Below the pieces are notes generated by a model. The model was not told the DNA's origin. It was given only the letters and a program-made list of their open reading frames with translations, and did no database searches. Below, piece after piece: positions 1 to 6,013 of a stretch of DNA of 64,000 nucleotides. Position 1 is the stretch's first letter, and each line of letters begins with the position of its first letter. The position numbers were made by a program, and so were the translations under genes. The DNA lies in the UHGV virus genome UHGV-1440165; one strand, given 5' to 3'. The stretch is from a virus.

Positions 1-96
1 GTTGACGCAGCCGACGAAGGTGAATACTGGTGTGTTGTTTCCGACGCCGACGGTCATTCTGTGACCTCCACCCGTTGTGAAATGGCTGTGGTCTAA
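1..96 (+). CDS. 3' end of an upstream ORF, truncated by the window edge
   Basis: Open frame running from the window start to TAA at 94-96, immediately before the next gene; no start visible. Confidence 0.3.
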   Translation, partial: VDAADEGEYWCVVSDADGHSVTSTRCEMAVV

Positions 97-98
97 TC

Positions 99-329
99 AT
101 GAAGGGCTTCCAGGACTTTCTTGAAGACTCGGCAGCCCCTGGCACCACTACCGCCGATGTGGGGAAACCCGAAGGCGGTATGGTGAAAGAGCCTGTCAAG
201 AAACCCAAGGATCTCGAGGAAGAACAAGAGAAGACCGACTTCCAAAAGATCTTTGGAAACATCTTCAAAGACCTGGATCTGAAGAATGCACGAAAGTGGA
301 ACTTCAGGACAGGAAAATATGAAGACTAA
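99..329 (+). CDS. Small internal-protein-like (IP-like) virion protein candidate
   Basis: N-terminus MKGFQDFLED resembles the T4 internal-protein capsid-targeting sequence (MKTYQEFIAE type); lysine/glutamate-rich 76 aa; followed by a terminator. Confidence 0.45.
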   Translation: MKGFQDFLEDSAAPGTTTADVGKPEGGMVKEPVKKPKDLEEEQEKTDFQKIFGNIFKDLDLKNARKWNFRTGKYED

Positions 330-350
330 AGAGGCTTCGGCCTCTTTTTT
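330..350 (+). terminator. Rho-independent terminator hairpin
   Basis: agaggc-ttcg-gcctct stem-loop followed by a T run (ctctttttt). Confidence 0.6.
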
Positions 351-417
351 CATTTCCAGCATTCGGTGTATAATGGACCCGTTCCCCATGAGCGGAACCT
401 AACTGAGGATACACCAA

Positions 418-897
418 ATGAAATCTATGGTTAAACGCGATGTGAACATCGCCATCACCCCACATATCGAACTCATCACTCAGATGATCCTTGATGCCGT
501 TGAAGTTGTTGAATTTCGTCGTGGTAAATCAAAAACTGATTTTTTACGGCGTGATGATGCGATCTATCATCGATTTCTGCGCCAGACAGGCCACTCCACA
601 GCCCTGAAACATATTCTTTCAAAACAATTCTTGGAAGAAACTGGACTCGAAGTCATAGCTATGTTCGCGAAAGAGCAGACAATCAAACTCACTTTGAATC
701 GTGAAGAAGTGGGTATGAACAATGCGTTCACCACATTTCAGTTTGAAAAGGGTGATGTGCTTATCGGCAGAAATCCGAAAGTCCTGATCGTATCAGACTC
801 TTTACATGATCCGGCATATCAATCTAAAGTCTGGAGTATCATCCAAAATAACCCAGGTCTGCAAACTAGTTTGACTTTAGTAGTGTTTCTGGGCTAG
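418..897 (+). CDS. Hypothetical protein
   Basis: 159-aa ORF, no recognisable motif. Confidence 0.45.
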   Translation: MKSMVKRDVNIAITPHIELITQMILDAVEVVEFRRGKSKTDFLRRDDAIYHRFLRQTGHSTALKHILSKQFLEETGLEVIAMFAKEQTIKLTLNREEVGMNNAFTTFQFEKGDVLIGRNPKVLIVSDSLHDPAYQSKVWSIIQNNPGLQTSLTLVVFLG

Positions 898-942
898 ATA
901 GTTACAGGGGAGGAAACTCCCCGCTTCAACCAGGAGGCACAT

Positions 943-1140
943 ATGTACAAGTTCAAGATCAACAAAGAACGAAATTCGTTCAAATTAGGTGTCGTCGCTG
1001 GAGTGTGTTTCTTCCTGACGATCGAAAACGTGATCGGGCTGCTCACAATATCACAAATGCAGATCACCCGGTTCCTTCTTGCCATTGTATTCGCCGCTAT
1101 CGGCCTGGCCTGCAGTTATGCGGGTTGTATGAAGAAGTAA
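943..1140 (+). CDS. Small hydrophobic (membrane) protein, hypothetical
   Basis: 65-aa ORF with two hydrophobic stretches (GVVAGVCFFLTI / LLAIVFAAIGLA). Confidence 0.3.
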   Translation: MYKFKINKERNSFKLGVVAGVCFFLTIENVIGLLTISQMQITRFLLAIVFAAIGLACSYAGCMKK

Positions 1141-1168
1141 TTTCACTACACACAGCAATACCCCTGAT

Positions 1169-1672
1169 TTGAGAGACTATATCATGATGCTGTTAATGAG
1201 TGTTCCACAGAACAAGATGACCCCTGCAACAGAGGGCAAGAATCACTTCAACATCTACAGTCGGAGCAACACCGAACTCGGTCGCTTTTTGTCGCATTTC
1301 ACTCACCATCCCACAGCCACTTACGAACATGGTGTGTTTAACTCCATGGAGGGCTACTGGTATTGGCTGAAGTACCGGGACGACAACCTGCGTCTGCTCG
1401 ACGGCTACGAGGCCAAGCAGTATGGCCAGGAGTTGGCGGCCACCCGTGTCATCGTCCTGGACCCGTCTACCGAAGAATTCAAGCGAGACATCCTGTTTGC
1501 GACCAGCATGAAACTCCAGACAATGCCAGACCTGCTGAAAATCAGATTGGCATACAGTCGACTTCCCCTGATCCATGCATACGTTCGGAACGGGAAATAC
1601 AGTTTTCAAAACTCTATGGACTTTATCATAGATCACATTAATCGTCTCCGCATACAAGGAACTTTGAAATGA
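1169..1672 (+). CDS. NADAR/YbiA-like (DUF1768-like) protein, putative ADP-ribose-processing enzyme
   Basis: FNIYSRS...LGRFLSHF...PTATYEHGVF...SMEGYWYWLKY resembles the YbiA/NADAR core (FYS..GxFSNF..PTSEHYFQAxK); true start may be an internal Met. Confidence 0.4.
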   Translation: MRDYIMMLLMSVPQNKMTPATEGKNHFNIYSRSNTELGRFLSHFTHHPTATYEHGVFNSMEGYWYWLKYRDDNLRLLDGYEAKQYGQELAATRVIVLDPSTEEFKRDILFATSMKLQTMPDLLKIRLAYSRLPLIHAYVRNGKYSFQNSMDFIIDHINRLRIQGTLK

Positions 1673-2250
1673 AATTTCTACACACTGTCGTTGGCACTTC
1701 CTATGATTGCACTGCGCACGAGCCGAACCGCTCGCCTGTGTTTGTTCTGAACAAACTGGGTGAAGAGATCTGTGAACTGTCCGATGTGTTTCACGGCATA
1801 GCCTCTTCTGAACCGTTGAATGGCGAAGTTGCTGACGTCATTATCTCTGCCATTGACCTTCTGTACGTCATGGATTTCACAGACCAGCAGCTGCATGGTT
1901 GCATGACCAAAGAAGAGTTGATTGACTCGGTGCAGACGCGTTTGGGGTTGCACAGCAATTGTTCACCTGAATATCTTGAAGAAGATTGGTTCCGACTGAT
2001 TGACCGTGATCCCCAGAAGCATCTGAACCTCATTCACCATTACCATGGTCGGATCATCCGATTGTGTAATCAGCCTTATCGCAGTGAAGATGTTCTGGAA
2101 AGACTTGTCGCCCAACTGATTACACAAGTCGCACGCATGGCATGCGGAGAAGGGGCGCTGCACAGCAATTGCACGATGGCCACCCGTATCAAAGTGGAGC
2201 AAGCATTTAACCACAAAGTTGAAAAATGGCGTATTAAATTTGGTCTATAA
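1669..2250 (+). CDS. MazG-like nucleoside triphosphate pyrophosphohydrolase (putative)
   Basis: LGEEICELSDV ... GEVADVIISAIDLL acidic helix pairs typical of MazG/HisE all-alpha NTP-PPases. Confidence 0.4.
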   Translation: MKFLHTVVGTSYDCTAHEPNRSPVFVLNKLGEEICELSDVFHGIASSEPLNGEVADVIISAIDLLYVMDFTDQQLHGCMTKEELIDSVQTRLGLHSNCSPEYLEEDWFRLIDRDPQKHLNLIHHYHGRIIRLCNQPYRSEDVLERLVAQLITQVARMACGEGALHSNCTMATRIKVEQAFNHKVEKWRIKFGL

Positions 2251-2299
2251 GCCAACCCCATACATAATCTTGTGTGTTTACCATTGACGGGATAGGCCG

Positions 2300-4210
2300 A
2301 TGTCCAACAAAATTGATATTGAACGCAAGTACAAGAAGCTCACTCACGTTGAGCATATCCTACTCCGCCCAGAGCGTCATCTGGGCAGTATTCGTTCGTC
2401 TGTGGGGACGGTCTGGGTGTATGACCCAAACAAAGACAAAGTCATCTTCCGTGACAACTTTGAGTACTCCCCCGCGCTGATCAAACAGTTTGATGAAATC
2501 ATCACCAACTGTGTCGACCACAGCAAGACCCCTGAGGGCAAATCCCTGACGGAAATCACTGTCACGGTTTCCCCTATGAACGGTCAAATCATCGTTGCTG
2601 ACAACGGGGGCATCCCTGTGGTCAAGCATGGTGTCACCAATGAGTGGCTCCCTGAGATGTTGTTTGGCTCGCTCTATGCGGGCAGCAACTTCAACGATGA
2701 AGACGAAGAGTACAACAACCAGAAGTCCGGCGGCCAGAATGGTGAAGGGGCTTCGTTGGTCAACGTGTTCTCAAAGTGGTTCCGCGTTACGACCAACGAC
2801 GGCAAGAAATCTTATGCTCAGACGTTTGAAGACAACATGAGCAAGAAGTCTAATCCGGTCATCAGCAACATGAACAGCCCTGGCACTTCCATCGCATGGA
2901 TCCCTGATTATGCTCGCCTGGGCGTCAAGGGGCTTGACCAGAACAACCTGCTCATGATCTATCGCCGCGCATTCGAAGTCGCTGCATGCAACCCGCGCCT
3001 GAAGATTGTGCTCAACGGCAAGCAAATCCGCATTGACCGCTTTGGCCATTTTGTTGATTACTTCTGTGCTGGCTCCGCTGTCGATGAAACCGGGGACTGG
3101 TCTGTTGCTGTAGCCCCTTCATCCGGTACGTTCATGCATGCTTCATACGTGAACTCAATCGCCACCCACATCGGTGGTCCGCACGTTGATTATGTGGCTG
3201 ATCAGATCGTGGCGGCGATTCGTCCTCAGCTGGTTAAGAAGTTCAAGACTGAGCTGAAGCCAGCGATGATCAAGAACCACATGTCCTTGTTCATCGCTGC
3301 CGACATCAACAACCCGCGCTTTGATAGCCAGACCAAGGAGCGCATGACGACTCCTGTCAGCCAGTTCGGTACATCCTACAAGCCCAGCGATAAGCTGATC
3401 CGCAAGGCGCTGGAGTTCGTTACAGCTGGCCTGAGCAAAGAACTGGCGGCTCTGCGTAATGACCAGGATGATGCCGAGTTTGAAAAGGCCAAGAAGGATA
3501 TCAGCAAGCGCGATTACCGTGAGATTGAGAAGTATTACCCGGCGACTGCCCGTGGCGATCGTAGCGGATGCTCCCTGCTGCTGACTGAGGGTGATAGTGC
3601 CTCCAACCCTATTCTGAACGCCCGTGACACTAAGAAGATCGGGTTGTTCCCACTTCGTGGTAAGTTCATCAACTGCCTGAACGCCCCGCGCTCAAAGGTG
3701 ATGGCGAACGAAGAGTTCAAGAACCTGTGCACAATCCACGGCGGCGCAGTACCCGGTCAGCCGCTTGACATCAGCCGCTATCCACAGACTGTTGTGGCTA
3801 CCGATGCGGACGATGACGGCATTCACATCCGTGGTCTACTGATCACCTTGTATTGCACCTACTGGCCGGAGTACGTCCGTCAGGGCAGGCTCAAGCTCCT
3901 GCGCACCCCTTACATGCGTGTGTGGTGTGGTAAGGTGATGCATGAGTTCATGAACAACGCTGAGTATGAGGAATTCCTGAAGACACCTGATGCCAAGAAG
4001 ATCACGAAGAAGAAATATCTGAAAGGTCTGGGCGGTAACAGCACTGAAGACTTCAAACGTATTCTAAACAACCTGGATGCGTATACTACGACGGTCACGC
4101 TGGACGACGGCTACAAACAGTCACTGAAGAATGGCTTCGGTGATGAGGCCGCCGATTACCGCAAAACCTGGTTTAGCGATGTTTGCCTGTTTGAAACCGA
4201 GGATGAATAA
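2300..4210 (+). CDS. 39: DNA topoisomerase II large subunit (GyrB-like ATPase/TOPRIM; T4 gp39 plus gp60-equivalent in one ORF)
   Basis: 636 aa; GHKL ATPase region (DNGGGIPV), TOPRIM region (LLLTEGDSA ... ATDADDDG); length consistent with a fused gp39+gp60. Confidence 0.9.
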   Translation: MSNKIDIERKYKKLTHVEHILLRPERHLGSIRSSVGTVWVYDPNKDKVIFRDNFEYSPALIKQFDEIITNCVDHSKTPEGKSLTEITVTVSPMNGQIIVADNGGIPVVKHGVTNEWLPEMLFGSLYAGSNFNDEDEEYNNQKSGGQNGEGASLVNVFSKWFRVTTNDGKKSYAQTFEDNMSKKSNPVISNMNSPGTSIAWIPDYARLGVKGLDQNNLLMIYRRAFEVAACNPRLKIVLNGKQIRIDRFGHFVDYFCAGSAVDETGDWSVAVAPSSGTFMHASYVNSIATHIGGPHVDYVADQIVAAIRPQLVKKFKTELKPAMIKNHMSLFIAADINNPRFDSQTKERMTTPVSQFGTSYKPSDKLIRKALEFVTAGLSKELAALRNDQDDAEFEKAKKDISKRDYREIEKYYPATARGDRSGCSLLLTEGDSASNPILNARDTKKIGLFPLRGKFINCLNAPRSKVMANEEFKNLCTIHGGAVPGQPLDISRYPQTVVATDADDDGIHIRGLLITLYCTYWPEYVRQGRLKLLRTPYMRVWCGKVMHEFMNNAEYEEFLKTPDAKKITKKKYLKGLGGNSTEDFKRILNNLDAYTTTVTLDDGYKQSLKNGFGDEAADYRKTWFSDVCLFETEDE

Positions 4211-4211
4211 G

Positions 4212-4658
4212 ATGGAATACCCGCTAACTCACCAGATACAACCAACAGCCGACACGTGTATGTCAACGTGTCTGGCGATGTTGCTTGATCGCCCGGTTGC
4301 CCAGGTTGCCGAAACTTGGCATGAAAGTTTCGCAAATTGGGAAACCACTATCGGTGATGTTCTTTGTATGGAGGGGGTTCCGTTCTTGTACGGGAAGGGA
4401 ATCAACCAAACCGCCACCATATATCATGATTATGTCTATCTTCTTTGCGTGCCAAGTCCGGCAACACCAGGAATATTGCATCAGATCATTATGGATACCC
4501 GAGGCGACAAAGTTGTCATACACGACCCACTGAAGGGTACTGGTAAAAGATACTACACCCTGGATGAAGACGACAAATCTCCTCTGGCGGTGAAACTTGA
4601 AACTTGGGTGGTGGACTACATTGTCGACCCGTATGAAGTAGGAGGTTATCGTGGGTAA
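4212..4658 (+). CDS. Hypothetical protein with C39/papain-like cysteine peptidase motif
   Basis: Q-x6-CMSTCLAML matches the C39 active-site signature (Q..C...CLxM); downstream His/Asp candidates (VVIHDP); GGAGG-like SD 9 nt upstream of ATG 4212. Confidence 0.35.
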   Translation: MEYPLTHQIQPTADTCMSTCLAMLLDRPVAQVAETWHESFANWETTIGDVLCMEGVPFLYGKGINQTATIYHDYVYLLCVPSPATPGILHQIIMDTRGDKVVIHDPLKGTGKRYYTLDEDDKSPLAVKLETWVVDYIVDPYEVGGYRG

Positions 4659-5991
4659 GATGGTTGCCAAGAGCATTACTGTAACGGACTTTGTCAACAC
4701 GGACCACAAGGAGTTCTCGGTGGTCAACAGCATCCGTCAAATCCCTCAGCTGATTGACAGCCTCAAGCCAAGCCAGCGCAAGATCCTCTTCGCGGCTCTT
4801 GAGTACAACAAGGAGGAGATTGTTGACCGCCTTGGTATGTTCGCCGCCGCCCGCACGAACTACAAGTCTGGTGGCGAGAACATGAGCGGCACTATCGTGA
4901 ACATGGCTCAGGGCTTCCCAGGTACGAACAACATCCCGTACTTCGACCGCGATGGCCAGTTTGGTTCTATCATGGGGCGCGAAGCGTCGTCGGCTCGTTA
5001 TATTTCGGTTGCTGTATCTGATGTTATCCGCAAGATCTTCCGTAAGGAGGATGAGGGTATCTTGGAATACAACTACCTTGGTGAAGAGAAACTGGAACCG
5101 AAGTTCTTCCTGCCCATCCTTCCCATGTTCCTGGTGAATGGCATTAACGGTATCGGCTCCGGTTATGCCACCGACACCCCGTGCCATTGTGTTAAGTCCG
5201 TGCTGAACGCCCTGAGAGCACTTCTCCGTGGCGATAACCCGACGGACTTAAAACCGTACTGGAACGGCTACAAAGGAGAGACAGGCTATACTGAGGAAGG
5301 AAGAGCATACAGTCGCGGCATCTTCCGTCGCGTCAATGCCACGACCCTGCATATCACCGAAGTCCCAGTGGGCTGGTTCGCCAAGACCTATGAGACCAAG
5401 GTGTTGCTGCCTCTGTATAAGGCTGGTATCCTCACTGAGTACGCCAACGACACGACTGAAGACGGCTGGGACATCACCGTTGTGTTCAAGCGGGGCGAGC
5501 TGTCTAAGCTGGATGACGATCAGGTTGAGCAGATGTTCAAGTTGTACTCTGCTAACAAGCCTGTTTGGACAGCCTGGGATGAAGACGGTGTTATCCATCG
5601 CTATTCGGGTTGGCAGGATATGCTGCTGCCGTTCTTCAACTATCGCCTTTCCCGCTATGAAGACCGCCGCCAGTACATGCTGAAGGATATGGCCGACAGG
5701 ATCAGCAAGCTGGGTGACCGGGCAGTGTTCATTGAATGGGCGACGCGTGTTGATCTCCGCCAAAAGATTGATGTGCTGAAGTCTCTGTTCATGCAGGATT
5801 ACCCAGACTTCGGTGGTGACCTTGACGAGTTGTTCAAGATGCCGCTGTCATCAATCACCCTGGATGCTCGTGAGCGGCTGCTCAAGCAGATAGAGAACCT
5901 TGAAGCACAGCACAAGGAATTAAGTAAGAAAGAGGACATTGACCTCTACAACGAAGACCTTGATGACCTTGAAAAGGCTCTTGGTCTGTAA
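4651..5991 (+). CDS. 52: DNA topoisomerase II medium subunit (GyrA-like; T4 gp52)
   Basis: SVVNSIRQIPQLIDSLKPSQRKILFAALE and GyrA-like breakage-reunion region; ORF-track start 4651 is GTG, ATG at 4660 is the likelier start. Confidence 0.9.
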   Translation: MGKMVAKSITVTDFVNTDHKEFSVVNSIRQIPQLIDSLKPSQRKILFAALEYNKEEIVDRLGMFAAARTNYKSGGENMSGTIVNMAQGFPGTNNIPYFDRDGQFGSIMGREASSARYISVAVSDVIRKIFRKEDEGILEYNYLGEEKLEPKFFLPILPMFLVNGINGIGSGYATDTPCHCVKSVLNALRALLRGDNPTDLKPYWNGYKGETGYTEEGRAYSRGIFRRVNATTLHITEVPVGWFAKTYETKVLLPLYKAGILTEYANDTTEDGWDITVVFKRGELSKLDDDQVEQMFKLYSANKPVWTAWDEDGVIHRYSGWQDMLLPFFNYRLSRYEDRRQYMLKDMADRISKLGDRAVFIEWATRVDLRQKIDVLKSLFMQDYPDFGGDLDELFKMPLSSITLDARERLLKQIENLEAQHKELSKKEDIDLYNEDLDDLEKALGL

Positions 5992-5995
5992 CACC

Positions 5996-6013
5996 GGAGG
6001 GGTTCGCCCCTCC
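5996..6013 (+). terminator. GC-rich hairpin after gp52 (weak terminator candidate)
   Basis: ggagggg-ttcg-cccctcc stem-loop; no clear T run. Confidence 0.3.

Follow-up and report, generated by a model that had tools for sequence, protein, structure and literature searches.

The 64,000-nucleotide stretch of DNA analysed here (the window) comes from UHGV virus genome UHGV-1440165 and carries, on the + strand and probably at 1184..1672, a gene for a protein of 162 amino acids (aa) that almost certainly belongs to the NADAR superfamily (YbiA fold). Judged by its sequence, the window is DNA of an Ackermannviridae (ViI-like) phage. Its first 6 kb showed 94 % identity to Salmonella phage pSal-SNUABM-02 and about 90 % identity to the Agtrevirus Ag3, and 284 phage records matched. 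Among NADAR proteins with a known activity, the closest to the window protein is T4 gp30.3, also called AdfN, which strips ADP-ribose from DarT1-modified DNA and rescues the phage from DarTG1 (PMC11825919).

Membership of the NADAR superfamily

An AlphaFold2 model of the window protein, made from 26 homologues, was confident and reached a predicted local distance difference test (pLDDT) score of 91.3 and a predicted template modelling (pTM) score of 0.86. A fold search of this model with Foldseek gave three credible matches, all of them NADAR structures, and in BFVD the named matches outside the protein's own family were mostly viral NADAR proteins. Among 1.84 billion cluster representatives searched, 1,845 were relatives (clusters at 50 % identity), and from the single-domain relatives an alignment of 80 sequences (A3) was built. 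When the hidden Markov model (HMM) of A3 was run against the whole PDB, PnNADAR 8bau was matched at E 1.5e-4. Profile-profile alignment by hhalign of A3 with a 40-sequence alignment of the T4 gp30.3/AdfN family (A4) gave 97.6 % and E 3.1e-12 over 141 aligned columns, and with E. coli YbiA, for which the query sequence was identical to 2b3w, 93.6 % and E 2e-7. With a shallow profile and the single T4 sequence the corresponding value was 54.5 % only, and the relation became convincing once both families had been enlarged. Reciprocal HMM cross-matches between the window family and the gp30.3 family scored 20-33 bits, and the gp30.3 family HMM picked this open reading frame (ORF) alone among the 580 six-frame ORFs of the window (E 9.5e-4). 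The two proteins are also found in the same PHROG, phrog_652, at 1.4e-52 for the window protein and 9.2e-51 for T4 gp30.3, with YbiA matching weakly (1.1e-7). A second NADAR paralogue did not turn up when HMMs were run on every one of these 580 ORFs.

The direct library searches weigh against this assignment. The Pfam NADAR model PF08719 did not match the window protein at E<=1, nor any of the 26 relatives at E<=10, and PF08010 (Phage_30_3) left the window protein unmatched, with two of the 26 relatives reaching E 0.013 only. NCBIfam and PADLOC did not match the window protein either; their silence is uninformative because the validated T4 AdfN, taken as a positive control, was likewise unmatched in both. 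By phmmer the window protein and T4 AdfN were not connected. Sequence searches of the PDB gave chance matches only (E>0.3), both for the single protein (4g6d ORF067 and a Fab light chain) and for the shallow 26-sequence profile (4g6d, Rrp17 and thioredoxin). The Pfam negatives are overturned because the more sensitive profile-profile and structural tests were positive. A preliminary description, made from the letters of the window, had called the protein NADAR/YbiA-like from a resemblance to the NADAR core and had proposed a NADAR profile match as the check. The identity was borne out by the fold, by the hhalign results for the gp30.3/AdfN family and YbiA, by the 8bau match and by the shared PHROG 652. 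The resemblance is real and is detectable with profiles or structure only, while the proposed match did not appear with PF08719 or PF08010.

The ORF given in the preliminary description is present on the + strand at 1169..1672, from TTG 1169 to the stop codon TGA at 1670-1672 (167 aa), and contains HFNIYSRSNTELGRFLSHFTHHPTATYEHGVFNSMEGYWYWLKYRDD. As read from the sequence, the start of the NADAR-like gene is more likely ATG 1184, because a GAGAG Shine-Dalgarno-like run (1171-1175) precedes it by 8 nt, because the orthologue in Shigella phage Ag3 has an annotated length of 162 aa and the N-terminus MMLLMSVPQ, and because all close homologues start at the equivalent position. The coding sequence of gp30.3/AdfN type would thus occupy 1184..1672 (+; 162 aa plus stop), and the 5′ extension 1169..1183 (+) is a probable untranslated leader, to go by the sequence and the homologue starts. 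TTG 1169 was rejected as the start on the same homologue N-termini and Ag3 annotation.

The gene is under strong purifying selection and is a genuine gene. A tblastn search with the window protein found 555 phage records, 421 with at least 80 % protein coverage and 233 with at least 60 % identity, and the comparison with Ag3 gave a nonsynonymous divergence (dN) of 0.038 and a synonymous divergence (dS) of 0.65 (omega ~0.06). These numbers, together with a broken antisense ORF, speak for a real gene and against a chance ORF. The antisense ORF of 154 aa (1193..1657, −) is open in this window only, and was rejected as a gene because it is interrupted in both Ag3 and FrontPhageNews; almost certainly it is a shadow ORF that exists by chance. 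Nearly all of the orthologue records examined carry the name "hypothetical protein", and one GenBank record reads "putative N-glycosidase". We noticed also that PHROG 652 is labelled "unknown function" although it contains T4 gp30.3/AdfN (T4 locus L001:6308-6766). The label no longer fits the family as a whole, because the function of AdfN has been experimentally established.

Active site and domain partners

The catalytic Glu of NADAR proteins is E88 in the C7 NADAR, E43 in PnNADAR and E36 in T4 AdfN, and it is followed seven residues later by a Lys, which is K95, K50 and K43, respectively (PMC11543638, PMC11125620, PMC11825919). A third catalytic position in the last strand is Glu in the YbiA type, Asp in the DarT1-linked type (BC4488) and His in phage gp30.3 (PMC11543638, PMC11125620). 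In the window protein, E56 (codon GAG, 1349..1351, +) aligned with E36 of T4 AdfN, E43 of PnNADAR and E88 of the E. coli C7 NADAR, as found with hhalign and in the 8bau HMM alignment. K63 (AAG, 1370..1372, +) aligned in hhalign with K43, K50 and K95, a phosphate and adenine contact. H131 (CAT, 1574..1576, +), where the C-terminal beta-hairpin begins, aligned with H123 of T4 AdfN, also in hhalign, and the model has a strand at 132-135, right after it. From these alignments E56, K63 and H131 are the equivalents of the catalytic Glu, Lys and His. A fourth position, K78 (AAG, 1415..1417, +), lies in an AK..G motif and aligned with K75 of PnNADAR and K115 of the C7 NADAR in the 8bau HMM alignment, where the chain numbering equals the paper's numbering plus two. 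In the C7 NADAR, K115 was dispensable in vitro and required against DarT1 in cells (PMC11543638).

E56, K110 and H131 were invariant in A3 (80/80), K78 was Lys in 79 of the 80 sequences, and H123 was invariant in the gp30.3 family alignment too. The catalytic Glu and His, whose absence the preliminary description had regarded as decisive against a NADAR protein, are thus both present and conserved throughout. Like the reality of the gene, the fold and the family, the catalytic residues are directly supported.

Among 47 longer relatives, nine carried a Macro domain, seven DUF4326, several a SLOG domain (YAcAr, YpsA or DprA-like) or DUF488, and one a calcineurin-like phosphoesterase domain. A polyvalent protein (P0123; 1,415 aa) combined a canonical PF08719 NADAR domain, a domain of the window type and DUF4326, and on its window-type segment PF08010 reached E 4.4e-6 and 27 bits against a cutoff of 36. 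In the jumbo phage Erwinia Ea35-70 (L006 2495..3852), a Macro gene (Pfam E 1e-9) stands directly before the gene of a 293-aa homologue, whose NADAR-like domain is N-terminal and whose C-terminal half contains a weak YAcAr SLOG match (E 1.4e-4, under the Pfam cutoff); the two genes form a putative compact ADP-ribose-processing pair. Two metagenomic homologues were located on phage-like contigs with small genes mostly without annotation. Macro, DUF4326 and SLOG are partners described for phage NADAR domains by Iyer et al. of the Aravind group (PMC9503650). The fusion partners tie the family to ADP-ribose chemistry, and they fit a nucleic-acid adduct and a soluble derivative alike.

Proposed function and its alternatives

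Because of the homology to T4 AdfN, the window protein may be an active orphan ADP-ribosylglycohydrolase of the gp30.3/AdfN type that counters guanine-directed ADP-ribosylation of phage DNA, a proposal to which we give slightly better than an even chance. Its activity, substrate, timing and targeted defence we infer as follows. The protein would be expressed early in infection, alongside the replication genes. It would hydrolyse, in phage DNA, the N-glycosidic bond between ADP-ribose and the exocyclic amine (N2) of guanine, possibly of cytosine too. The damage caused by DarT1-type or other guanine-directed ADP-ribosyltransferase toxins would be undone and replication could proceed. The preliminary description had likewise seen a candidate ADP-ribosylation-reversal factor, and the placing in one PHROG with the validated T4 AdfN keeps it a candidate by analogy. 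The DarT1-linked, sigma70-linked, YbiA-type and T4 gp30.3 NADARs, and in vivo those of Bas32 and Bas60, have been reported to reverse guanine ADP-ribosylation or to neutralise DarT1 (PMC11125620, PMC11825919), and none of those assayed on thymine adducts cleaved them (among PMC11125620, PMC11825919, PMC11833690, PMC12945103).

Several observations weigh against this proposal. The identity between T4 AdfN and the window protein is only about 20 %, and the function of AdfN may not transfer, because T4 AdfN is fully functional in the T-even background only (PMC11825919). Only in the Ackermannviridae branch is residue 63 a Lys (7 of the 80 sequences of the wider family). At the position of the phosphate-binding R79 of PnNADAR the window protein has a Gln (Q82), where 60 of the 80 family members have Arg or Lys, and the canonical D..WG motif of NADAR proteins is missing, as it is in gp30.3. 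This analysis gave no sign of DarTG1 restricting Ackermannviridae, and no ADP-ribosyltransferase gene lies nearby. Finally, Iyer et al. have argued that soluble ADP-ribose derivatives are the substrates of most phage NADARs (PMC9503650).

It is possible, if rather doubtful, that the clade marked by HxNIYS, EGYWYW and HYY (1,845 clusters, missed by Pfam, with Macro, DUF4326 and SLOG fusions) is a functionally distinct NADAR branch whose substrate is not the guanine-ADP-ribose made by DarT1. Enzymes of such a branch could act on a different base adduct, on an adduct carried by hypermodified phage DNA or on a soluble immune signal derived from ADP-ribose; the Ackermannviridae enzyme might then be paired with the MazG-like pyrophosphatase encoded immediately downstream and probably coupled to it in translation. 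A related reading, which we consider unlikely, has an active NADAR working on a soluble molecule derived from NAD+ or ADP-ribose, such as a cyclic or linear immune signal or an RNA-repair by-product, and thereby quenching host signalling. The frequent fusion of relatives to Macro, DUF4326 (a predicted phosphatase) and SLOG, a combination read as low-molecular-weight ADP-ribose processing (PMC9503650), would suit it, as would the homologues of phiPMW and a Cobetia phage, which are found near Nudix and SLOG-like genes, and the variability across the family of the DNA-facing and phosphate-binding positions (K63, R82). The reported NADAR activities, however, concern base-linked ADP-ribose in nucleic acids (PMC11825919, PMC11125620, PMC11833690, PMC12945103), K78, the equivalent of the C7 Lys needed only for in vivo rescue from DarT1, is near-invariant, and the window protein stands alone, without those fusion partners or neighbours. 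The base-linked ADP-ribose might instead be that of RNA (guanosine or cytidine), so that phage transcripts, tRNA and rRNA would be shielded from RNA-directed ADP-ribosyltransferase toxins. NADARs have been reported as the only hydrolase family reversing guanosine ADP-ribosylation in RNA (PMC11833690), some reverse cytidine ADP-ribosylation (PMC12945103), and RNA-repair-type genes (Thg1, PTH2 and a nucleotidyltransferase) are found close to metagenomic phage homologues. Nevertheless the sole in vivo role established for a phage member of PHROG 652 is on DNA, against DarT1 (PMC11825919), and the gene is located among genes of DNA replication and nucleotide metabolism, which makes an RNA target distinctly unlikely here.

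We regard it as quite improbable that the protein is a metabolic or base-modification N-glycosidase, acting like YbiA (riboflavin intermediates) on a ribosylamine-type metabolite, and that it serves, with the probably coupled MazG-like pyrophosphatase, the peculiar nucleotide metabolism of these phages and not a defence against the host. ViI-type phages have hypermodified thymidine, the two genes overlap by 4 nt (ATGA) and keep their adjacency in Ackermannviridae, the gene is near-universal and syntenic there in the manner of a core-metabolic gene, and the orthologue record already named "putative N-glycosidase" points the same way. Against this, the adjacency to the MazG-like gene is confined to Ackermannviridae and distant homologues have other neighbours, the fusion partners found elsewhere are related to ADP-ribose and not to nucleotide synthesis, and the nearest characterised relative is an anti-DarT factor. 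The slimmest chance is given to a protein that has kept the NADAR fold and is catalytically dead or a ligand binder, such as an ADP-ribose sponge or a regulator. Q82 in place of the phosphate-binding Arg and the loss of D..WG would agree with such a protein, but E56 and H131 are invariant over 80 diverse members, K63 is present, and T4 AdfN, with the same His-type active site, is active (PMC11825919).

If the protein is active as a glycohydrolase of the AdfN type, Ackermannviridae would carry a built-in counter to defences based on DNA ADP-ribosylation, which bears on host range and on the choice of therapy phages. ViI-, CBA120- and Ag3-like phages, whose hosts are Salmonella, E. coli O157, Shigella, Klebsiella and Dickeya, are widely used in biocontrol. 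If the annotation of T4 AdfN were transferred, the 555 phage records and the 1,845 metagenomic protein clusters would gain a provisional name. The clade may also be useful for studying the substrate specificity of NADARs, because it varies naturally at two ADP-ribose-contacting positions. Literature searches brought up no paper on the Ackermannviridae protein and nothing specific linking Ackermannviridae or Kuttervirus with NADAR or DarTG.

Gene neighbourhood and known systems

A consensus scan found a terminator-like hairpin at 328-347 (+), plus a T run, and then a match to a sigma-70-like promoter (TTTTCA-16-TATAAT) at 347-374 (+). The segment 328..374 is a possible start of a transcription unit composed of an HU-like gene, a membrane-protein gene, the NADAR-like gene, the MazG-like gene and topoisomerase II. 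These genes share one strand and either overlap or stand 43-49 nt apart. The histone/HU-like gene (418-897, +) belongs to phrog_4164 (1.9e-39), and its relatives are annotated as histone family DNA-binding or histone-like proteins. Its name rests on remote clustering, because its product had no Pfam match at E<=1 and none in the PDB sequence search. In the 45-nt gap between this gene and the next, a perfect hairpin GGGGAG-GAAA-CTCCCC was seen by eye at 906..921 (+); it is not a classical terminator, because it has no T run. The following gene (943..1140, +), which the preliminary description had called IP-like, turned out to encode a predicted membrane protein of 65 aa in phrog_4835 (unknown function, 4.1e-27), and the Ag3 orthologue carries the annotation of a membrane protein with one or two transmembrane segments.

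Downstream, the MazG-like gene (1669..2250, +; 193 aa) has its ATG overlapping the stop codon of the NADAR-like gene in an ATGA of 4 nt, which suggests translational coupling of the two. Its naming as MazG-like in the preliminary description agreed with phrog_1247, "MazG-like pyrophosphatase" (2.7e-35), and with the visible motifs LGEEICEL and GEVADVI, which are typical of all-alpha nucleoside triphosphate pyrophosphatases, but obtained no match in Pfam or in the PDB sequence search. Some GenBank records name the orthologue "viral tegument-like protein". The genes of the topoisomerase II large subunit (2300-4210, +) and medium subunit (4651-5991, +) enclose and are both overlapped by a gene for a 175-aa protein of unknown function (4131..4658, +; phrog_4049, 5.1e-52). 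The Ag3 orthologue of the latter is annotated shorter, as 148 aa. In the window protein of this gene a TADTCMSTC...H pattern could point to an enzyme of the Cys/His kind, and there was no Pfam match.

The gene order is conserved in Ag3 (Agtrevirus) and FrontPhageNews (Kuttervirus), and the MazG-like neighbour of the orthologue is also listed in Taipeivirus-type Klebsiella phages. Because the same order is kept in Ag3 and FrontPhageNews, the locus appears to be a conserved syntenic, probably early, DNA-metabolism block and not an obviously variable accessory island, so that the accessory block of the preliminary description was given up. In the nearest relatives, pSal-SNUABM-02 and Yersinia phage CAU_YEP3 (MT857002, PQ863687), genes for HNH homing endonucleases are present inside the matched region. 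In these two records the matched spans exceed the 6-kb query (window 1..6000) by about 1 kb, and the match is in 4-5 pieces. The longer spans suggest insertions that the window is without.

Of the known systems, T4 gp30.3/AdfN (PF08010, PHROG 652) is the closest, being in the same PHROG and giving a near full-length profile-profile match. Both proteins (152 aa in T4 and 162 aa here) are stand-alone orphans in a large myovirus, and they share the same triplet of a Glu, a Lys seven residues later and a His in place of the Glu or Asp of cellular NADARs. The window clade differs from T4 AdfN by its signature HxNIYS, EGYWYW and HAY/HYY, by the poor conservation of the catalytic Lys in its wider membership, by the Gln of the window protein at the R79 equivalent and by the frequent fusions to Macro, DUF4326 and SLOG. 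The genomic position differs too, with the window gene next to the topoisomerase II and MazG-like genes and T4 AdfN near DNA ligase. The orphan phage NADARs AdfN-Bas32 (T5-like) and AdfN-Bas60 (Vequintavirinae), which neutralise DarT1, are described in PMC11825919 as the outcome of a conserved-domain search and as grouping with the archaeal and bacterial canonical NADARs and not with gp30.3.

The DarG1-type (BC4488) antitoxins, such as those of E. coli C7 and Geobacter lovleyi (8bat), have a catalytic Asp where the window protein has His. The window protein is also without their N-terminal extension, without an adjoining DarT1 toxin gene and without a PADLOC match. A DarG1 antitoxin of a DarTG1 system was considered and rejected, as the neighbours are the HU-like, membrane-protein, MazG-like and topoisomerase II genes, and the approximately 60 kb of Ag3 that correspond to the window have no gene annotated as ADP-ribosyltransferase, as Macro or as otherwise NAD-related. 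From the canonical NADAR/YbiA proteins (PF08719; 2b3w, 8bau) the window protein is separated by its His in place of the YbiA-type Glu and by the absence of D..WG, and what YbiA does in the cell (riboflavin intermediates, swarming) is an unlikely task for a protein of a lytic phage. The prediction of phage NADARs dates from 2012 and a further survey from 2022, and T4 gp30.3 was found active in 2024 and to be an anti-DarTG1 factor in 2025. Against this background the window protein is of a known kind and extends the T4 mechanism without presenting a new one; what it adds is a large clade that Pfam has missed.

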